Notes under the pieces: model-generated
The model's database searches: none
What the model was told of the DNA's origin: nothing
What the model saw: the letters and a program-made list of their open reading frames with translations, nothing else
In this document: positions 2,070-14,309 of the stretch, piece by piece
How positions within the stretch are numbered: the stretch's first letter is position 1
Layout of the letters: the number at the start of each line of letters is the position of its first letter
Virus genome (UHGV): UHGV-0041029
Reading direction: 5' to 3' (one strand)
Length of the DNA: 15,376 bases
Source: a virus
Made by a program: the position numbers and the translations under genes

Positions 2070-2086
2070 TTTTGTGGAGTAAGTTG

Positions 2087-2464
2087 ATGCGTGATATTCA
2101 GATGGTTCTTGAGCGTTGGGGGGCATGGGCGGCTAATAATCATGAAGATGTGACCTGGTCGTCCATTGCCGCCGGTTTTAAGGGATTAATTCCTTCAAAA
2201 GTAAGATCTCGTCCGCAATGCTGTGACGATGACGCGATGATCATTTGTGAATGTATGGCTCGCCTGAAAAAAAACAACAGCGATTTACATGATTTATTGG
2301 TGGACTATTATGTCGGCGGCATGACTTTTATGGCGCTTGCACGTAAGCATGGGCGATCTGATTGTTGGGTTGGCAGGATGCTCCAGAAAGCTGAGGGCGT
2401 AGTGGAGGGCATGCTGATGGTGTTGGATCTCCGATTGGAGATGGATGCTGATTGTTCGAAATAA
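2087..2464 (+). CDS. Putative late-gene antitermination protein Q-like (short Phage_antitermQ-type)
   Basis: 125 aa from the ATG at 2087, with GGAG 7 nt upstream; the track ORF starts at TTG 2072. Position directly downstream of DUF968 and upstream of a terminator and the lysis genes is the canonical Q slot. Cys cluster ([12 protein letters not shown]) and a helix-turn-helix-like C-terminus. Family assignment is by recollection only. Confidence 0.55.
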
Positions 2465-2562
2465 TTAAAGGAAAAGTTGCTGTCTGATTTTCATTAGTCT
2501 AACATTTTAAATGTTGGAATCGCAACGTAGTTATTATCATATAACAGCTTGTTTCCTGATTT

Positions 2563-2593
2563 AGCCAGCCTCCCCAAAGGCTGGTTTTTTTCT
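2563..2593 (+). terminator. Rho-independent terminator downstream of the Q-like gene (candidate tR'-like)
   Basis: Stem ccagcc (2565-2570), loop tccccaaa, stem ggctgg (2579-2584), then a run of 8 T. Lies between the convergent Q-like and lipocalin genes. The - strand reading lacks a U tract, so it acts mainly on + strand transcripts. Confidence 0.65.
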
Positions 2594-2619
2594 AATAAGT
2601 ATCATTTCGGGTGGGGATT

Positions 2620-3144
2620 TTATTGTTTAACCCATAATAGTTCATTGACATTGAATCCCAACTTTTGAGCGGTACGCACATAGTCTGCTTTTACATTATC
2701 TGGAATAGTTTGGGTCCTTGCCAGAATCCATAGGTATTCTCTGTTCGGACCACTGATAAGAGCATACTTATACTCATCATCCAGCTTGATTACATTATAA
2801 CCACCATAGAAGGGGCCAAAAAACGAAACTTTCAACGCTGCAGTTTTAGTATCTCCAGTAAAGTATGCTTTACCTTCGCTCTCGCTCCATTTGTTTTTCG
2901 TTGGATCGTATCCACGGTTAAGTACGCGAATCCCTCCGTCGTTCCGTTTTTCATAAGTAGCGCTGATCTGTTCCAGACCACGTTCGAACCAGTTCTCGAG
3001 GCGAGCTATTTCATACCATTTTCCGAGGTAGCGGTTGGCGTCAAAATTTGTAATCGGCTGCACACCTTTAGGTGGTGTCGGGGCCTTACATGCTATAAGA
3101 GTGAAAGAGAGTGCAATGCCAGTCAACACAGGCCATAACTTCAT
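2620..3144 (-). CDS. blc: Bacterial lipocalin Blc-like outer-membrane lipoprotein
   Basis: 174 aa. N-terminal signal with lipobox (FTLIAC-K). Lipocalin motifs shared with E. coli Blc: NFDANRYLGKWYEIAR, GKAYFTG, AALKVSFFGPFYGGYNVI, YLWILART. AGGA lies 8 nt upstream of the ATG on the - strand. Confidence 0.8.
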   Translation of the reverse strand: MKLWPVLTGIALSFTLIACKAPTPPKGVQPITNFDANRYLGKWYEIARLENWFERGLEQISATYEKRNDGGIRVLNRGYDPTKNKWSESEGKAYFTGDTKTAALKVSFFGPFYGGYNVIKLDDEYKYALISGPNREYLWILARTQTIPDNVKADYVRTAQKLGFNVNELLWVKQ

Positions 3145-3336
3145 AATAAATCCTGTACTTTTGATAGTTGAGAGTAAGTATGAAAGATAGATGAGTACGA
3201 CCGATCACTTAAAGAACTTTCCTACTATATTAGGAATAGTCAATAACAGAAAAATTGTCAGTGATGAAGCCAGAAAGGCAATTTAGTCCGTGCACTACAA
3301 AGTTTATGTGTTAATGAATTAGTCAAGGGGGAGGAA

Positions 3337-4296
3337 ATGATAAAAAAACCTGTGATTGGGATCAGCGGTTGTTTGGGCGGTTCTGCTGTTCGTTTTGATG
3401 GTGGTCACAAAAGAGATGACTTTTTAATGGACAAATTAGTGGAATGGGTAACATTCAGACCAGTATGTCCGGAAATGGCTATAGGGCTGCCAGTTCCGCG
3501 TCCTGCTCTACGACTTGTGCGCTCGAAGCAAGGAAATATACGGATGTGTTTCAGCCACGACCAGAATGAGGATGTGACAGAGAGAATGACAGAGTTTAGT
3601 CGTTCTTATATGGACAAATTAAAGGATGTATCGGGGTTTGTGGTTTGTGCTAAATCTCCCAGCTGTGGCATGGAGCGCGTGCGTGTCTATGATGAAAATG
3701 GTAATCGAGGTCGTAAAGATGGAGTGGGACTATTTACGAGCACTTTGATGGAAAAGTTTTCCTGGCTACCGGTTGAAGAGGATGGGCGATTACATGATCC
3801 AGTGCTTCGTGAGAATTTTATTGAAAGAGTTTTTGCTTTGCATGAGCTCAATCACCTTTACAAGGAGAAATTATCAAGAAGAGAGTTATTAGCTTTTCAT
3901 AGTCGTTATAAGCTTCAGTTGTTGGCGCATAGCCAGGCAGGCTATAAAGATATGGGACCATTTGTGGCTGCAATACACGAGTGGGCGGACCTTGAATCAT
4001 ACTTTGAGGTGTATCGTGATAATCTGATGGCGATTCTCAAAAAACCAGCATCACGTAAAAATCACACGAATGTGCTGATGCATATACAGGGGTATTTTAG
4101 TAATTACTTAAGTACACGCCAGCGTAAAGAGTTGAGCGAGGTTATACTTAACTATCGCTTTGGCACATTGCCTCTTCTTGCGCCGTTGACTCTGCTGAAG
4201 CATTATCTGGGTGAGTATCCTAATGATTACTTGCTTACACAGAATTACTTCGATCCCTATCCGGAAGAACTGGCTCTAAGACTGATGGTGAATTAA
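3337..4296 (+). CDS. DUF523 (TudS-like thio-nucleobase desulfidase domain) fused to DUF1722 (YbgA-like); RudS-like putative tRNA 4-thiouridine desulfidase
   Basis: 319 aa, strong RBS gggggagg before the ATG. N-terminal half has Cys in the pattern expected for the TudS [4Fe-4S] ligands (GISGC at 12, PVCPE at 44, VVCAKSPSCG at 104/110). C-terminal half resembles YbgA/DUF1722. Domain calls are by recollection. Confidence 0.65.
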   Translation: MIKKPVIGISGCLGGSAVRFDGGHKRDDFLMDKLVEWVTFRPVCPEMAIGLPVPRPALRLVRSKQGNIRMCFSHDQNEDVTERMTEFSRSYMDKLKDVSGFVVCAKSPSCGMERVRVYDENGNRGRKDGVGLFTSTLMEKFSWLPVEEDGRLHDPVLRENFIERVFALHELNHLYKEKLSRRELLAFHSRYKLQLLAHSQAGYKDMGPFVAAIHEWADLESYFEVYRDNLMAILKKPASRKNHTNVLMHIQGYFSNYLSTRQRKELSEVILNYRFGTLPLLAPLTLLKHYLGEYPNDYLLTQNYFDPYPEELALRLMVN

Positions 4297-4702
4297 CTGT
4301 ATGCGATATCATCTGAAAGTGATGAGTTCCTGTATGCAGGATATTTACAATCGTAAAAACTACGCTATGATGCTCATAGTATCAGTTTTTATAAAAATCC
4401 TGTTCACGCTAAAGAAAACATTGAGATGCAATTTAATGTTGGTAAACATACCAGCCCCAAACGATTTTATTCAATCTGTTTTTATATGAAGATATTTCAA
4501 GTGAATATTAAGAGCATATAATATTATTATTGCACGCAGCTATTATAATATAACAGATTAGTTTAATGATTTGTTTTTTGTGAGTTAAACACATGGTTTT
4601 ATAGTTGTGATGCAATGAGATTTTCCTTATTGTTGAACTGGCGAATATTGATTTTCCACCTATACTTACCTGGTGTAACCCCAATGATATCAGGTGGATA
4701 AT

Positions 4703-5416
4703 ATGCCATACATATGTTCTATCATTTTGGTGTTGAACTCGTTTGGTGTCCGAATTGGTAAAGAAGATATTTTGTTTAAAAAAGGAAATGCTGTCCTCAT
4801 TGAATACAATTTAAAAGATCTTTTTTCGTCAAATACAGATCATCTAATGATCGTAGATGTTGAGGAGAAAACAGTTAATGATTTCTTTAAAAACTACACA
4901 CTCTCACCTTTTTCTGTAAGAAGGTTTTATCCGTCATACTTGATAGTAGAATGTGAAGATTTTTCATTGTTAAAGAACTTGGTTGCATGCTTGAATTGTG
5001 ATAGCAAAACCGTGGATGTAGTTAGAAATCAAATATCACTTGCATGTCTTGCTGTCTTATCTTCAGAGAAAATAGTGCAAAGTTTTTTGTTCGGAAGTCT
5101 TAATAGCTTAGGTTGTAAAGTTAAGGCTATTATTCACTCGGATATCTCAGCGTCATGGAGACTTTGTGATATATCTTCAAGATTATATATGAGCGAGAGT
5201 TTGTTAAAAAGAAAATTAAAAGACGAAGGATTATCGTTTAGTAAATTAATTCTTGAAGAACGAATGATGATGGCGCAAAGATTATTGATCTACAGTAACC
5301 ATACTGTCGGCAAGGTGGCGGGAATATGCGGGTATGACAATGCATCATATTTTGTAAGTGTTTTTAGAGGATATTTTGGTGTGCCTCCGCACCAATATTT
5401 ATCAAGATTTTCTTAG
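4703..5416 (+). CDS. AraC/XylS-family transcriptional regulator, GadX/AppY/YdeO-like
   Basis: C-terminal double-HTH AraC signature (WRLCDISSRLYMSESLLKRKLKDEGLSFSKLI ... GYDNASYFVSVFRGYFGVPPHQY). Gene and upstream 400 bp are visibly AT-rich. Start is probably the ATG at 4703 (aggtgg upstream); the track ORF starts at GTG 4694. Confidence 0.8.
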   Translation: MPYICSIILVLNSFGVRIGKEDILFKKGNAVLIEYNLKDLFSSNTDHLMIVDVEEKTVNDFFKNYTLSPFSVRRFYPSYLIVECEDFSLLKNLVACLNCDSKTVDVVRNQISLACLAVLSSEKIVQSFLFGSLNSLGCKVKAIIHSDISASWRLCDISSRLYMSESLLKRKLKDEGLSFSKLILEERMMMAQRLLIYSNHTVGKVAGICGYDNASYFVSVFRGYFGVPPHQYLSRFS

Positions 5417-5482: not shown

Positions 5483-5516
5483 CTACGCCAGAATAATTGC
5501 TGGCGTTTTTCTTTTT
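5483..5516 (+). terminator. Rho-independent terminator after the AraC-family gene
   Basis: Stem acgccag (5485-5491), loop aataattg, stem ctggcgt (5500-5506), followed by tttttcttttt. Confidence 0.6.
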
Positions 5517-7162: not shown

Positions 7163-7407
7163 ATTAATATTAAATCGGATTATTTTTAGCGCTGAATGTG
7201 AAATTTAAATAAAAAGGACTCTTCCATGAGTCAAAATCCTTGAAATCTTAAGGGTAAGATAAAAGGTCATTAGACAGAATGACACGTTTTATTAATAAAT
7301 AAAGCTATTGTTTCATTCGTGTGTTTTTCTTTACAAAAGTAATCCTTGCTATGGTTGGTTAATCATGCGTTAATGGTGTTCTGGTTTGTTACAAAATTAT
7401 CTGAAGC

Positions 7408-7430
7408 AGTCATTGTTATAATTTTATTAT
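7408..7430 (+). promoter_or_regulatory. Candidate extended -10 promoter (TGnTATAAT) for the cold-shock gene with long 5' UTR
   Basis: tgttataat at 7414-7422 inside an AT-rich leader about 100 nt before the cspI-like start. CspA-family genes typically have long structured 5' UTRs. No convincing -35 seen. Confidence 0.3.
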
Positions 7431-7522
7431 TTGTACCTCTTGAGATTTCCTTGTTGGTTTTTCTCTCTGATATTTTTTTTCGGACCATTCTGCCCAAGGG
7501 CTAACTTCTTCAAAAGGTAATA

Positions 7523-7738
7523 ATGATGTCTAACAAAATGACTGGTTTAGTGAAATGGTTTAACCCTGAAAAAGGTTTTGGTTTCATCACGCCGAAAGAT
7601 GGTAGCAAAGATGTGTTTGTGCATTTCTCAGCTATTCAGAGCAACGATTTCAAAACGTTAACTGAGAATCAGGAAGTCGAATTTGGTATTGAGAACGGAC
7701 CTAAAGGCCCTGCAGCTGTTCATGTAGTGGCACTTTGA
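7523..7738 (+). CDS. cspI: CspA-family cold-shock protein
   Basis: [23 protein letters not shown]...VFVHFSAIQ carries the RNP1/RNP2 cold-shock domain motifs. ATGATG start, so the true start may be 7526 giving 70 aa. Symbol given from Qin-like context (followed by ynfN-like and gnsB-like genes); paralogue identity is not certain. Confidence 0.85.
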
Positions 7739-7942
7739 GGTAGAAAATATTACAAACCATATTCACTTTAGATGCCCGTGTTGCCATGGTTCTCAGTATA
7801 GAACATCATCTTTTGATGTTTCTGACAGAAATCCTTTCGGGGCAAAATGTATCTTTTGTAAATCAATGATGATTACATTTGATAATATTTCACAATACTT
7901 AAATGTTAGCCATCTGTCGTTAGATTTAAGAAAGTGAAAATG

Positions 7943-8240: not shown

Positions 8241-8412
8241 TTTGATTCTAATGCATTGATAATAAATGATAATCATCTTTATCTGTTTGTGTGAAATTTA
8301 GACCGTCGTATGTTGATTATTGCGATGTTTCATCTTATCTTTTATACGTTTGCTCCATATAATTGACACTACTGTGTACCAGGACAGTCATAACAGACTA
8401 AAAGAGGAAATG

Positions 8413-8586
8413 ATGAACATTGAAGAGTTAAAAACAAAAACAGAAGCAGATATTTCTGAATATATAACAAAAAAAATCATTGAGCTTAAGAAAAAGACCG
8501 GGAAAGAAGTTACCAGTATCCAGTTTACTGCACGGGAAAAAATGACTGGTCTTGAAAGCTATGATATCAAGATTGATTTAATCTAG
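8413..8586 (+). CDS. gnsB: GnsA/GnsB-family small protein
   Basis: 57-aa product MNIEELKTKTEADISEYITKKIIELKKKTGKEVTSIQFTAREKMTGLESYDIKIDLI matches the GnsA/GnsB family. aagagg RBS 5 nt before the ATG at 8413; the track ORF from 8320 is an unsupported extension. Confidence 0.8.
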   Translation: MNIEELKTKTEADISEYITKKIIELKKKTGKEVTSIQFTAREKMTGLESYDIKIDLI

Positions 8587-10185: not shown

Positions 10186-11919
10186 ATGGGTTTTTCATCA
10201 GCCCGAAATTTGGGAAGGGACATATCGGCAGGATTTTCCCCACCACGTCGCATGCCGATTTCGGAGGCTGTTAAAAAATTCATGCGTGTTCCCAAGGGGG
10301 CTGGTAACTCGGTGCCATGGGATCCTGAACTGACACCCTACATCATTGAGCCCATGAACTGCCTGGCATCGCGTGAATACGATGCGGTGATTTTTGTTGG
10401 TCCTGCGCGAACAGGGAAGACCATTGGTCTGATCGATGGATGGATTGTCTATACCATCGTTTGCGATCCTTCGGACATGCTCGTTGTGCAGATGACCGAA
10501 GATAAGGCCCGCGAGCATTCTAAAAAGCGCCTCGACAGAACGTTCAGAAGCAGTGCGGCGGTAAAGAAAAGAATGAGTCCACGTCGTAACGACAATAATG
10601 TCCATGATAAGACGTTCAGGGATGGCTCGTTCCTTAAAATTGGTTGGCCCTCGGTCAACATTATGTCGTCGTCGGATTACCGGTTTGTCGCCTTAACCGA
10701 TTACGACCGTTTTCCGGAGAATATCGACAGCGAGGGTGATGGTTTCTCCCTAGCCTCAAAACGTACCACCACATTTATGTCCGCCGGGATGACTCTGGTG
10801 GAGAGCTCGCCGGGACGTGACATCTGCGACAGCAAATGGCGACGTAAGTCGCCTCATGAAGCGCCACCGACGACTGGTATTCTTTCCCTTTACAATCGTG
10901 GTGACCGCCGCCGCTGGTACTGGCCATGTCCGCACTGCGGTGAATATTTTCAGCCAGCTATGGATGCCATGACCGGCTACCGTAATGAACCGGATCCCTT
11001 TAAAGCCAGTGAGGCGGCGTATCTACTTTGCCCGCACTGCAGCGGCATTATCACTGCGGAGAAAAAGCGTGAGCTCAATAGTGCAGGAGTCTGGTTACGT
11101 GAAGGTCAGGTCATTGATCGTAACGGCAACGTTTCCGGTGAACCGCGCCGCTCCCGTATCGCCAGTTTCTGGATGGAAGGGCCAGCTGCTGCGTATCAGA
11201 CCTGGGCGCAACTGGTTTACAAATTACTGACTGCAGAACAGGAGTATGAAGCGACAGGAAGCGAAGAAACACTCAGGGCGGTTATCAACACCGACTGGGG
11301 ATTACCTTATCTTCCTCGTGCCAGCATGGAGCAACGAAAAAGTGAACTGCTTGAGCAGCGGGCAGAGCCAGTTCCTTCCCGCAGTGTTCCGGATGGCGTT
11401 AATTTCCTTGTGGCGACAGTGGATGTGCAGGCGGGACGTCATCGCCGTTTTGTGGTTCAGGTAACGGGCTATGGCAGCCGTGGCGAACGCTGGATTATTG
11501 ATCGTTACAACATCACGCAGTCATTGCGCAGTGACTGCGACGGGGAGAGCCAGCGAATTGATCCGGCCAGCTATCCGGAAGACTGGGATGTCCTGCTGGG
11601 GAGCTGGTTTTACGACGAACTGACGTATGAAGAGCGGAGCAGTGACGGGAAATGGAGTAAGCCGGGTCGCGGTGCCAACGAAGCTTTTGACCTGATGGTG
11701 TATGCCGAGGCGCTGGTCATTCTGCATGGATACGAAAAGATCCGCTGGCCGGATGCACCGGAGTGGGCGAGCCGGGAAACCTGGCTGGAGTGTGTCCCGG
11801 ACAGTACCGAACCGTCACCCTCACCGGAGCCGGTATCCACGCCTGTTAAAAAACAAAAACGGAAGAAAACAGTAACTGACGATGTTAACCCCTGGCTGAC
11901 TTCCGGAGGATGGTTATGA
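10186..11919 (+). CDS. Terminase large subunit, lambda gpA family
   Basis: 577 aa. Walker A P-loop (VIFVGPARTGKT), Cys-rich motifs (WYWPCPHCGEYF and LLCPHCSGI) comparable to the lambda gpA CPHC region, and a C-terminal nuclease-type region. Confidence 0.85.
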   Translation: MGFSSARNLGRDISAGFSPPRRMPISEAVKKFMRVPKGAGNSVPWDPELTPYIIEPMNCLASREYDAVIFVGPARTGKTIGLIDGWIVYTIVCDPSDMLVVQMTEDKAREHSKKRLDRTFRSSAAVKKRMSPRRNDNNVHDKTFRDGSFLKIGWPSVNIMSSSDYRFVALTDYDRFPENIDSEGDGFSLASKRTTTFMSAGMTLVESSPGRDICDSKWRRKSPHEAPPTTGILSLYNRGDRRRWYWPCPHCGEYFQPAMDAMTGYRNEPDPFKASEAAYLLCPHCSGIITAEKKRELNSAGVWLREGQVIDRNGNVSGEPRRSRIASFWMEGPAAAYQTWAQLVYKLLTAEQEYEATGSEETLRAVINTDWGLPYLPRASMEQRKSELLEQRAEPVPSRSVPDGVNFLVATVDVQAGRHRRFVVQVTGYGSRGERWIIDRYNITQSLRSDCDGESQRIDPASYPEDWDVLLGSWFYDELTYEERSSDGKWSKPGRGANEAFDLMVYAEALVILHGYEKIRWPDAPEWASRETWLECVPDSTEPSPSPEPVSTPVKKQKRKKTVTDDVNPWLTSGGWL

Positions 11920-11960
11920 ATCAGAATGATATTGAAGCCATGATTCAGCGTTATGGGTGA
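11916..11960 (+). pseudogene. 5' stub (14 codons) of the gene that followed terminase, truncated by deletion
   Basis: ATG overlaps the terminase stop (ATGA), typical coupling for the next head gene. The frame stops after MNQNDIEAMIQRYG, where tape-measure homology begins in another frame. Confidence 0.3.
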
Positions 11961-12798
11961 TCAGCAGCGGCAGCGATATCAGGTACAACTGAGTCTTCGC
12001 CAGAAATACCAGCAACAGCTGGAGCAGTTGAGGCGGGATAGTGAGCAGAAAGGAATATATAACACGGATGACTACAGAAAGGCCGAGCAGGCGCTGACGG
12101 AGAGCCTGAACCGACAACTGAATGAGAATCGCCGTTACTGGCAACAGCTTGAAGTTGTGCAGGGTAACTGGAAAAACGGAGTCCTGCGTGCATTTCAGAA
12201 TTTTACCGTGGATGCAGATAATACGGCAGGAACAGCAGAACAGGTGTTCTCGTCAGCCTTCAGCAACATGGGAAATGGCCTAGCAACTTTTGTCACTACC
12301 GGCAAACTCAATTTCAAATCCTTCACCTCTTCTGTGCTGTCAGATATGGCGAAAATCCTGGCGCAGGCAACCATGATGAAATCGATAAAAGGGATTGGCA
12401 GTGTACTGGGATTTGATCTCAGCAGCCTTTCCCTGAATGCCAATGGGGGGATTTATCAGTCTGCTGATTTGAGTCGTTACAGTGGCACGGTGGTTAACCG
12501 TCCGACGTTTTTTGCTTTTGCAAAAGGCGCGGGTGTGATGGGGGAAGCGGGACCTGAAGCCATTCTGCCACTGCGTCGTGGTGCTGACGGTAAGCTGGGG
12601 GTTGTGGCGGATATTGGTGGTTCAGGTATGGCGATGTTTGCCCCGCAGTACAACATCGAGATCAATAACGATGGCACGAACGGGCAGATAGGTCCGGCTG
12701 CCCTGAAGGTGGTTTATGACCTCGGGAAAAAAGCGGCAGCGGACTTTATGCAACAGCAGGCCCGTGATGGTGGTCGGTTAAGTGGAGCATATCGGTAA
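11953..12798 (+). pseudogene. C-terminal fragment (about 280 aa) of a lambda-like tail tape measure protein (gpH)
   Basis: The C-terminus (NIEINNDGTNGQIGPAALKVVYD...ARDGGRLSGAYR) parallels the lambda gpH C-terminus (VINNDGTNGQIGPAALKAVYD...MRDGGLFSGGGR). The stop overlaps the gpM start (TAATG). No N-terminal 500+ aa present. Confidence 0.8.
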
Positions 12799-13876: not shown

Positions 13877-14309
13877 TCCAGCTGGCTTCGTGGCTGTTTT
13901 CAACAGTGATGAGTCATCGTGGCATCTCGTTGAAGATCATCGGGGTAAAACGGTTTATGACGTGGCTTCCGGCGACGCGTTATTTATTTCTGAACTCGGC
14001 TCATTACCGGAAAATGTCACCTGGTTATCCCCGGAAGGGGAGTTTCAGAAGTGGAACGGCACAGCCTGGGTGAAAGATGCAGAAGCAGAAAAACTATTCC
14101 GGATCCGGGAGGCGGAAGAAACAAAAAACAGCCTGATGCAGGCAGCGAATGAGCATATTGCGCCACTTCAGGATGCTGTAGATCTGGAAATCGCAACGGA
14201 GGAAGAAAACTCGTTGCTGGAAGCCTGGAAAAAGTATCGGGTGTTGCTGAACCGTGTTAATACAACAACTGCACCGGATATTGAATGGCCAGTAGCACCT
14301 ATAGGGTAA
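13875..14309 (+). pseudogene. C-terminal fragment of tail fibre assembly protein (Tfa family)
   Basis: [67 protein letters not shown]... matches Tfa proteins (TfaQ/TfaE-like). Homology starts abruptly at the gpJ junction, so the N-terminal 50-60 residues are missing. An in-frame GTG/ATG could still allow a truncated product. Confidence 0.75.

Follow-up and report, generated by a model that had tools for sequence, protein, structure and literature searches.

A blc-type outer-membrane lipocalin gene carried together with a rudS-like gene as cargo of a Qin/lambda-like Escherichia coli prophage

The presence of a minus-strand gene between the Q antiterminator gene and the lysis genes of the viral genome UHGV-0041029 raises the question of what this gene encodes, where it was acquired and whether it is carried as a functional gene. 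In the window, which is the whole stretch of 15,376 nucleotides analysed, the interval 2620-3336 had been described by the initial annotation as a Blc-family lipocalin moron, convergent with Q and divergent from a RudS-like gene. Within this interval only 2620-3144 codes, and 3145-3336 is a 192-bp divergent intergenic region. According to the open reading frame list, the blc gene (minus strand, stop codon at 2620-2622, ATG at 3142-3144) encodes a predicted 174-aa outer-membrane lipocalin lipoprotein precursor, whose translated start reads MKLWPVLTGIALSFTLIAC followed by KAPTPP. The family was borne out by the profile PRK10477/NF007786 of NCBIfam, 'outer membrane lipoprotein Blc' (310.7 bits against a cutoff of 267, positions 1-174 of 176 in the profile), by Pfam Lipocalin_2 (PF08212; E 2.5e-42, 144.7 bits against a cutoff of 24) and by the E. 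coli Blc structures 3mbt, 1qwd and 2aco in the PDB (E 1e-65 to 1e-66). Moreover, the open reading frame coordinates and Pfam matches agreed with the proposed orientation, as Q (2072-2464, plus strand) belongs to the 82/DLP12 QuuD-like family (PF06530 Phage_antitermQ, E 8e-51; RefSeq 'antiterminator Q family protein') and the RudS-like gene (3337-4296, plus strand) encodes a TudS desulfidase fused to DUF1722 (2-thiour_desulf 5.5e-40, DUF1722 7.2e-40). The cargo status also held, since the order Q, blc (minus strand), rudS and lysis genes was found in isolated phages as well, e.g. Lambda_2E9 and IdasGreatGrand, and blc was reported as a moron in more than 50% of the lambda-like gut coliphages of Mathieu et al. 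2020 (Nat Commun, PMC6969025). The prophage gene is annotated in RefSeq, being present in about 20% of complete E. coli genomes, and its PHROGs family, phrog_2809, is labelled there as 'unknown function'. The minus-strand gene is confirmed as an intact blc, an outer-membrane lipocalin cargo gene of a Qin/lambda-like E. coli prophage, and as phage cargo it was already known, both annotated and published.

A clear lipobox with a signal peptide had also been claimed, and at the sequence level this was recovered. The motif LIAC (L16-I17-A18-C19, codons at 3088-3099, minus strand) was matched by a regular expression, K2 lies in the n-region and the h-region had a mean Kyte-Doolittle value of 1.86. 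In the alignment of 30 homologues, M1, K2, L16, A18 and C19 were invariant, and Cys19 is the sole cysteine of the prophage protein. Signal peptidase II is predicted from the lipobox to cleave before this residue and leave it acylated. Under the +2 rule, a residue other than Asp at position +2 predicts sorting to the outer membrane; in the prophage Blc this residue is Lys, which would give the protein a Lol-sorted, outer-membrane location. Furthermore, the lipocalin fold, whose absence had been named as a refutation, was present in the AlphaFold model built from the 30-sequence alignment (pLDDT 78.5), with eight strands and a helix at 149-161; its top Foldseek matches in the PDB were 2aco, 1qwd and 3mbt (TM 0.85-0.96, rmsd 1.1-1.7 Å). 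This model was used instead of the single-sequence one, which was poor (pLDDT 46).

The ligand pocket was taken as the 19 residues that in the E. coli protein approach heme or vaccenate to within 4 Å (list from PMC8177097). A total of 16 of them were identical in the prophage protein, the other three being the conservative changes V60I, K77R and V130I, compared with 78 of the 136 non-pocket residues, so that identity to E. coli Blc reached 84% in the pocket vs. 57% on the surface. E. coli Blc binds heme (PMC8177097), and its ligand and role are disputed between lysophospholipid and heme, and between dimer and monomer (PMC8177097 for the heme side). As the eight-stranded barrel of E. coli Blc is predicted with a nearly unchanged pocket, the prophage Blc would most likely bind lysophospholipids or fatty acids, or possibly tetrapyrroles, on the side of the outer membrane that faces the periplasm. 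However, the allele of the window has W at position 52, a residue of the pocket entrance that is R in nearly all other sequences, and its ligand behaviour may therefore differ.

The initial annotation had treated the gene as a prophage copy of chromosomal blc, which was not borne out. The prophage Blc shares 94 of 155 residues (61%) with the host Blc linked to ampC, while its identity to a second, rudS-linked Blc clade was 72-79%; accordingly, the neighbour-joining tree nested the phage proteins in the latter clade, far from the native sugE-blc-ampC clade. This second clade was sampled through 11 species genomes having a Blc at least 72% identical, from Enterobacter species, Leclercia, Buttiauxella, Huaxiibacter, Raoultella and Kosakonia. 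A RudS 70-73% identical to that of the prophage was encoded near blc in ten of them, Kosakonia being the one in which no such match was found near the clade Blc, and in nine of these ten an MlrA-like MerR regulator gene lay between blc and rudS. The typical layout has blc divergent from the regulator gene, often uraH, and rudS. The same blc-regulator-rudS locus was carried by an E. coli plasmid of 303 kb, beside integrases and IS26, and by metagenome contigs, while the more distant Blc genes (loci L019-L087) had no RudS gene up to a distance of 8 kb.

In the phages, both genes were found as a unit. The order Q-blc-RudS-orf62-AraC was kept in 80 of 80 IMG/VR loci wherever the contig reached, and blc never occurred without rudS. 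Moreover, blc and rudS were similar in G+C content (43.4% and 43.1%) and in GC3 (41% vs. 40%), differing from their chromosomal homologues (51-60% G+C) and from the flanking phage genes for DUF968 and the terminase (54% each). The description as a moron hence stands as far as a cargo gene is meant, but not a lone one, as the gene order in the 80 loci and the synteny of the clade make blc one arm of a blc-rudS cassette. Both genes were probably captured together from an accessory locus of Enterobacter type, with the regulator gene and uraH lost in the phage. Synonymous sites were saturated between phage blc and all its chromosomal relatives, which implies that none of the sampled relatives was the direct donor and that the capture is old. 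This joint capture with the RudS-like gene, together with the loss of the regulator, is the one new point beyond the published cargo gene, as neither the rudS link nor the chromosomal source locus was noted by Mathieu et al. 2020 (PMC6969025).

The divergent intergenic region (3145-3336) holds several candidate signals for the expression of blc. On the minus strand, a candidate Shine-Dalgarno sequence (AGGA, 3151-3154) is preceded by a candidate sigmaS-type -10 element, CATACTTA (3175-3182), which aligned with CTACACTTA, present 5′ of the chromosomal blc genes linked to rudS and 5′ of the native E. coli blc, the latter with a similar spacing to the ATG. The two differ at positions -13 and -12, and the element appeared degenerate in phage alleles (CATACT or AATACT vs. 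TACACT in the native and chromosomal elements). In addition, no minus-strand promoter upstream of blc in 3145-3336 passed a strict sigma-70 scan. Further upstream, the palindrome TTCCTAC-TATA-TTAGGAA (3219-3236) forms the only strongly conserved non-coding element common with the chromosomal blc-merR intergenic regions, matching at 19 of 23 positions with Buttiauxella; it is a candidate element with a mismatch in the commonest phage allele, and no second copy that could point to a regulator was found in the prophage window, immunity region included. The 128 bp located 5′ of blc were as conserved among phage alleles as the coding sequence. On the rudS-proximal side, only weak and ambiguous matches to the regions upstream of chromosomal rudS were obtained with MAFFT and local alignments, and for this weak non-coding homology the junction of the merR/uraH deletion is not precisely placeable.

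On the other side of blc, the signals are oriented for late transcription. A tR'-like intrinsic terminator on the plus strand (2563-2593) was identified by a terminator scan, having a 9-bp GC-rich stem and then a T7 tract (AGCCAGCCTCCCCAAAGGCTGGTT followed by TTTTTCT; folding dG -14.9 kcal/mol), and it was conserved in Lambda_2E9. On its minus-strand side the hairpin is followed by CTAAATC, lacking a U tract, and the scan yielded no minus-strand intrinsic terminator for blc, the sole hairpin being oriented for the plus strand. The hairpin at 2563-2586 was also considered as a terminator imported with blc, which was ruled out because the 3′ flank of blc is unlike the chromosomal 3′ flanks. Between Q and the terminator, the segment 2465-2562 (plus strand) is presumed by its position to contain the late promoter pR'; it includes a palindrome with 10-nt arms (2498-2518) and showed weak sigma-70-like matches only. 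To find the pR' and qut sites, the segment was compared with 434B, whose DLP12-type Q is 85% identical in nucleotides up to window position 2446, but homology ends there, 18 nt short of the Q stop codon, and is followed by unrelated DNA; furthermore, Rfam had no match in 2400-3400. With a plus-strand terminator placed between Q and the 3′ end of blc, late read-through antisense to blc, as initially proposed, fits the geometry and would occur on induction. However, the prophage of the window is defective, its truncated terminase being fused region-wise to a tape-measure fragment, and a productive late programme is thus absent from it. In the opposite direction, unterminated blc transcription into tR', pR' and Q might possibly dampen leaky late expression.

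Purifying selection was evident among the phage alleles of blc, with dN/dS of 0.07-0.24 for alleles up to 5.5% diverged, and it lends at most indirect support to a presumed expression from the repressed prophage and a benefit for the host. All 84 phage or prophage copies examined were intact, and blc was kept in the degraded prophage of the window. The gene is dispensable, as at the same site phages having a Q 85% identical and lacking blc carried other cargo or none after Q (nmpC in 434B/DLP12; ev243 and the PhiR series), with homology ending at position 2446. If blc were a neutral hitch-hiker, carried along with Q/pR' and rudS and having no independent function in E. coli, its tight linkage to the 3′ end of Q and the pR'-tR' segment would be accounted for, given that the segment 2440-2619 was found in 1113 genomes with identity bands mirroring those of blc (about 1135 records), and so would the roughly 8% of genomic blc copies that are truncated or interrupted, IS insertions among these. 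Nevertheless, the intactness of the sampled phage copies, the dN/dS values, the conserved 5′ region and the retention in a degraded prophage make this reading very improbable. The supposition that a lone blc was duplicated from the host ampC-linked gene and inserted by itself in reverse orientation agrees with the same family, the same length and the collinear numbering shared with E. coli Blc, and with the native gene that E. coli has at sugE-blc-ampC. Yet the data obtained here already contradict it and make it barely credible, given the lower identity to that protein than to the rudS-linked clade, the position in the tree, the constant company of rudS in the viral loci and the matching G+C and GC3 of the two genes.

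Llp and Cor are outer-membrane lipoproteins that act in superinfection exclusion or receptor masking, and a similar benefit to the phage, rather than lipid handling for the host, might be envisaged for Blc, which is likewise a predicted outer-membrane lipoprotein and presumably expressed from the prophage; moreover, the same lambda-like gut coliphages commonly carry morons for membrane proteins, sie among them (PMC6969025). Against this, the pocket was more conserved than the surface, which argues for small-ligand binding being retained rather than for a new protein-protein function, the closest relatives are chromosomal and outside any phage context, and PADLOC gave no match for Blc, RudS, orf62 or the AraC-like protein, so that a role of this kind appears quite unlikely. 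Another proposal concerns both genes as a functional pair derived from a light or photo-oxidative stress locus, with the phage spreading a de-regulated version; the task of RudS would be to remove s4U, a near-UV chromophore, from tRNA, and that of Blc to trap damaged lipids or photosensitising tetrapyrroles. Such a pair would be in line with the linkage of blc and rudS to an MlrA-like MerR regulator in one Blc clade, with heme binding by E. coli Blc (PMC8177097), and with the frequent location of RudS genes in MerR/LitR light-responsive operons, the RudS of E. cloacae adjoining a MerR regulator (PMC11417400). Conversely, the two genes are linked in a single enterobacterial clade only, RudS being absent from the 8 kb around the more distant Blc genes, light sensing by this MlrA-like regulator is without support and the regulator is absent from the phage copy; in addition, the literature and the supplement of the RudS paper were searched for a link of lipocalins to RudS or to light and nothing was found, a lipocalin never being mentioned in that paper or its supplement (PMC11417400). 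The photo-stress pair is considered unlikely. The broader idea is that of a co-selected pair from a stress locus controlled by an MlrA-like MerR regulator, the stress possibly being near-UV or photo-oxidative; lambdoid phages would have captured the pair, removed the regulator and carried the two genes into about one fifth of E. coli. This idea is unlikely too, if slightly less so.

The explanation considered likely as a whole is that of a functional blc, carried as a moron between Q/tR' and the lysis genes and co-captured with rudS. Its source would be the layout found in Enterobacter-type bacteria, where blc is divergent from the mlrA-like merR gene, often uraH, and rudS, the phage version having neither the regulator gene nor uraH. 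As lysogenic-conversion cargo of Qin/lambda-like coliphages, blc would provide the lysogen with a second, 61%-identical Blc, exported by Sec, lipid-modified and probably anchored in the outer membrane, where it may have an envelope or lipid role during lysogeny. In the lysogen, blc would be transcribed from its own putative promoter in the 192-bp intergenic region, and tR' would shield it from the constitutive late promoter. Upon induction, the Q-modified RNA polymerase would read through tR' and cross blc antisense on its way to rudS, the AraC-like gene and the lysis genes.

Since the cargo gene was already annotated and published, the finding of blc changes little by itself. However, about 20% of complete E. 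coli genomes carry a prophage-borne second Blc paralogue together with a RudS-type tRNA 4-thiouridine desulfidase, while E. coli is said to lack RudS in the RudS literature (PMC11417400). Moreover, lysophosphatidylethanolamine in the gut and inflammation of the host respond to the native blc allele, and studies of such alleles could for this reason be confounded by an additional Blc that is widespread and varies at its pocket entrance (R52 or W52). If the reading as a co-selected pair were true, lysogens would constitutively have both an enzyme erasing s4U from tRNA and a second lipocalin in the outer membrane, neither of them present in laboratory E. coli.

Among known systems, the lambda-like gut coliphages of Mathieu et al. 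2020 (PMC6969025; Lambda_2E9, LR595860, and phage 1H12, NC_049947) carry the same gene, with 95% amino-acid identity, and as in the window Q is followed by blc on the minus strand, the YbgA/RudS gene and the lysis genes. In contrast to these, the allele of the window has R52W, G65E, P145Q, K150N, V60I and V130I, and it resides in a defective Qin-like prophage instead of an isolated phage. The chromosomal E. coli Blc (1QWD, 2ACO, 3MBT) resembles the prophage protein in family, length, Cys19 lipobox, fold and pocket residues, while belonging to another clade and having ampC and sugE as partners instead of rudS; the prophage protein lacks Cys131 and has W, not R, at 52 and N at 84 instead of G or E. 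The closest relatives remain the rudS-linked paralogues of Enterobacter, Leclercia, Buttiauxella, Huaxiibacter, Raoultella and the 303-kb E. coli plasmid (72-79%), in which blc is likewise divergent from rudS, with the upstream palindrome-like block and the -10-like element conserved; they differ in keeping the MlrA-like MerR gene and usually uraH between both genes, and in their higher G+C content. Outer-membrane protein morons located on the opposite strand of the late region, as blc is, are also represented by nmpC/lc of DLP12 and PA-2 and by bor of lambda. In particular, in the DLP12-derived part of 434B the related Q is immediately followed by the porin gene nmpC on the opposite strand, and Lambda_2E9 has a minus-strand bor behind Rz, these being cell-envelope genes crossed antisense by late transcription; however, the porin and the Bor lipoprotein belong to families unrelated to Blc, and both are single genes and not a divergent two-gene cassette. 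Another blc mobilised in E. coli is the one beside blaCMY-2 on plasmids (blaCMY-2-blc-sugE, Citrobacter-derived). The plasmid matches found at about 66% nucleotide identity, annotated as 'lipocalin family protein', are presumably of this context, that is, members of the ampC-linked clade mobilised by insertion sequences as passengers of the beta-lactamase gene. Finally, the phiLM21-like prophages of Sinorhizobium meliloti (PMC12429752), likened here by description, represent an independent case of lipocalin-family prophage cargo in unrelated hosts and phages.

The blc gene consists of one long minus-strand ORF at 2620-3144, which starts with ATG and encodes 174 amino acids (MKLWPVLTGIALSFTLIACKAPTPPKGV...). 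The Blc-like outer-membrane lipocalin proposed in the initial annotation was borne out by matches of its product to Pfam Lipocalin_2 (E-value 2.5e-42), to the NCBIfam model of outer-membrane lipoprotein Blc from end to end (310.7 bits, curated cutoff 267), and to the PDB sequences of E. coli Blc, with 3mbt, 1qwd and 2aco as the best, collinear and gap-free hits (E-value around 1e-66). A single-sequence AlphaFold model of phage Blc was poor (pLDDT 46), while the one built from a 30-sequence alignment reached a pLDDT of 78.5, displayed eight strands and a C-terminal helix, and superposed on E. coli Blc (Foldseek TM 0.85-0.96, rmsd 1.1-1.7 Å), the next matches being plant TIL, ApoD and bilin-binding lipocalins. 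Moreover, the clear lipobox previously described was present, the N-terminus comprising K2, a hydrophobic core and LIAC with Cys19 as the sole cysteine; M1, K2, L16, A18 and C19 were invariant across the homologues in the 30-sequence alignment. As both a modelled lipocalin fold and a signal-peptide sequence were found, the lipocalin observation is confirmed. The lysine at residue +2 predicts sorting to the outer membrane by the +2 rule.

On the plus strand, a DUF968 (ydfU-like) gene upstream of blc and a Q antiterminator gene (PF06530) ending at 2464 were mapped, followed beyond blc by rudS (3337-4296, TudS and DUF1722 domains), a 62-aa ORF (orf62, 4301-4489) and a YdeO/GadX-like AraC-family regulator gene (4694-5416; best NCBIfam match YdeO, 112 bits, below cutoff). 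This ORF and Pfam map agreed with the orientation originally assigned to blc, convergent with Q and divergent from the RudS-like gene. A P21-type holin, DUF1327, lysozyme and Rz lie on the lysis side beyond the AraC-like gene. No family match was found for orf62, which is absent from chromosomal blc-rudS loci. The AraC-like regulator, encoded in DNA of 31-35% GC, is only 77% identical to its counterpart in the isolated phage Lambda_2E9, and its region appears to be a moron in its own right, richer in AT. A near-identical prophage annotated in RefSeq is Qin-like, with int, xis, dicB, ydfA, hokD, rem, ydfU, Q, blc, a gene for a 'YbgA family protein', one for an HTH protein, essD, rrrQ, rzpQ and cspI. 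Typical Qin cargo was also seen in the window, namely a cspI-like cold-shock gene (7523-7738), spanned with its leader by a cspA thermoregulator (Rfam, 110 bits; 7368-7784, plus strand), and an ORF of the GnsA/GnsB toxin family (8320-8586). Furthermore, the IS009 sRNA family was matched with 212 Rfam bits at 14071-14269 (plus strand), inside or adjoining a tail-fibre assembly gene. The prophage of the window is defective (10186-12798, plus strand): the terminase large subunit is shortened to 577 aa, its nuclease domain being incomplete, and is directly followed by a C-terminal tape-measure fragment and then by gpM-like, truncated gpL-like (minor tail) and tail-fibre assembly genes, the head and most tail genes being missing. 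Only 10 genomes cover at least 80% of the window.

The blc module itself was detected by megablast in 1156 of the 5426 complete E. coli genomes, and blc as the sole query matched some 1135 records with identities of at least 90%. PGAP names the prophage gene product 'outer membrane lipoprotein Blc' or 'lipocalin family protein', 12 phage records carry the gene as 'Lipocalin Blc', and PHROGs places the protein in phrog_2809, of unknown function. Prophage blc had thus already been annotated and published as a cargo gene; Mathieu et al. describe it as a moron carried by more than 50% of their lambda-like gut coliphages (PMC6969025). Overall, the observation holds and its first interpretation is essentially correct; the new points are modest, namely the origin in a rudS-linked Blc clade, the co-capture with rudS, the loss of an MlrA-like regulator and the fixed linkage to an allele of Q and of pR', the presumed late promoter. 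A 2113-bp contig of a 'Candidatus Nanosynbacter' MAG (L008, JARKOR010000135.1) contained phage blc at 96% and Q at 98%, and is almost certainly mis-binned E. coli prophage DNA. In a study of E. coli adaptive evolution (PMC3764026), 'SNPs' were reported for a hypothetical protein along with blc and quuQ in the same evolved isolates; these may be changes in the prophage module rather than in native blc.

Identity, phylogeny and synteny exclude that phage blc was copied from the host gene. Phage Blc shares 94 of 155 residues (61%) with native E. coli Blc, encoded in the locus sugE-blc-ampC, and 72-79% with its closest non-phage relatives; in a neighbour-joining tree, the phage alleles nest within a rudS-linked clade that is well separated from the native, ampC/sugE-linked one. 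In all three metagenome-derived homologues, blc was divergent from genes for an MlrA-like MerR regulator (Pfam MerR_1, MlrA_helical and MlrA_C), a transthyretin/HIUase (uraH-like) protein and RudS. Among the 11 genomes of a species-representative collection whose Blc reaches 72% identity or more, 10 had RudS on the divergent side (six Enterobacter species, Leclercia, Buttiauxella, Huaxiibacter and Raoultella), 70-73% identical to phage RudS, nine of them with the MerR regulator in between, and no RudS was found within 8 kb of the more distant Blc genes of that collection. A 303-kb E. coli plasmid (L171, NZ_CP081678, 52918-61246) carries a truncated blc divergent from MerR-uraH-YbgA(RudS)-AAA ATPase, with integrases and IS26 adjoining, and this gene set recurs, together with a transposase, on a metagenome contig (L003). 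In the phage, blc and rudS share an unusual composition, with 43.4% GC (GC3 41%) and 43.1% GC (GC3 40%), respectively, compared to 51-60% GC in the chromosomal homologues. The order Q, blc, RudS, orf62, AraC was constant in all 80 IMG/VR loci, as far as the contigs reach, and the Q 3' end with the pR'-tR' segment was found in 1113 genomes, falling into identity bands (417, 586 and 110 records) that parallel those of blc (391, 634 and 110). The simplest reading is that blc and the divergent merR-(uraH)-rudS were captured once, long ago, that the regulator and uraH were lost, and that the remainder is now inherited en bloc with this Q allele. As the 3' flank of blc has no similarity to those of its chromosomal relatives, the captured DNA ends at or just past the stop codon; and since synonymous sites are saturated between phage blc and all of these relatives, either the donor is absent from databases or the capture is ancient.

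That blc is a neutral hitch-hiker is disfavoured by the intactness of its copies and by purifying selection: all 84 extracted phage or prophage copies were intact 174-codon ORFs, and pairwise dN/dS between phage alleles diverging by up to 5.5% was 0.07-0.24, with small counts (5-9 non-synonymous and 19-20 synonymous differences in the deepest pairs). Regarding the 19 residues within 4 Å of the ligand listed by Bozhanova et al. (PMC8177097), 16 are identical between phage and E. coli Blc and three differ conservatively (V60I, K77R and V130I), against 57% identity outside the pocket. Given this conservation above the rest of the protein, ligand binding has probably been retained, the candidate ligands of E. 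coli Blc being either lysophospholipids and fatty acids or else heme, with a Kd in the low micromolar range. A possible role in superinfection exclusion is not favoured, because conservation is higher in the pocket than on the surface and no defence-system match was obtained with PADLOC. The allele group of the window (W52/E65/Q145/N150, around 35 of the 84 copies) presents the derived changes R52W, G65E, P145Q and K150N, and the other main phage group shows R52/G65/P145/K150, the combination seen in every chromosomal relative. Codon 52 (2989-2991, minus strand), Trp in the window, corresponds to R52, which is placed at the pocket entrance (Zou et al.) and is nearly invariant in relatives. Position 84 is Asn in phage Blc; the G84E variant of E. 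coli Blc has been linked to inflammatory bowel disease (Zou et al.), and the native blc of E. coli CB6837 (locus L170, 2889-3422) encodes this E84 (PDREMW).

A functional Blc-RudS pair acting under light or photo-oxidative stress is only suggested, by the blc-rudS linkage and by a report associating RudS with light-responsive MerR/LitR operons (PMC11417400); the linkage is limited to one Blc clade, and that paper and its supplement make no mention of a lipocalin. RudS is given there as present in S. typhimurium and not in E. coli, but a RudS-architecture gene rides the prophage module in around 20% of complete E. coli genomes, which suggests that many natural strains may have a phage-borne tRNA s4U eraser.

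We infer that blc is expressed from the 192-bp blc/rudS intergenic region, where a strict promoter scan returned no minus-strand promoter. Two upstream elements are shared with the chromosomal relatives, although non-coding similarity is otherwise weak. One is a candidate -10, CATACTTA (3175-3182, minus strand), aligning with CTACACTTA of the rudS-linked loci, which also appears some 30 nt ahead of the native blc of E. coli; this element resembles a CTATACT-type sigmaS -10. In the phage gene, positions -13 and -12 differ, and Lambda_2E9 reads AATACT. The other is the palindrome block TTCCTAC-TATA-TTAGGAA (3219-3236), with 19 of 23 positions matching Buttiauxella and no second copy within the prophage. 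It could serve as an operator for the MlrA-like regulator that was lost, or be a -10 (TATAGT in the phage vs. TATACT in chromosomal loci); in the commonest phage allele the palindrome is broken at one position. Among phage alleles, the 128 bp preceding blc match the coding sequence in conservation, and the 72 bp on the rudS side are about threefold more variable.

The sole strong hairpin between Q and the blc stop (2563-2586, dG -14.9) leads into T7 on the plus strand and into no U tract on the minus strand, and is therefore a tR'-like terminator serving the plus strand. For the same reason, it was ruled out as the terminator of blc itself. Comparison with DLP12-type Q regions did not reveal pR'/qut, as homology stops at 2446 and gives way to unrelated DNA. 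A near-perfect palindrome, TCTAACATTT-t-AAATGTTGGA (2498-2518, plus strand), situated between Q and this terminator, may be part of pR'/qut or of a short terminated transcript. The lysis genes lie 3 kb past the Q terminator, behind the minus-strand blc, rudS, orf62, the AraC-like gene and a second plus-strand terminator (5485-5506), and the isolated phages Lambda_2E9 with its relatives and IdasGreatGrand have the same gene order. This geometry, with a plus-strand terminator after Q and the lysis genes beyond blc, agrees with the earlier proposal that late read-through would be antisense to blc. In the isolated phages, late transcription would presumably cross blc in this way, as for bor and nmpC. 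Both are precedents for an oppositely oriented envelope-protein gene: in the part of 434B derived from DLP12, nmpC follows a related Q on the opposite strand, and bor is found on the minus strand after Rz.
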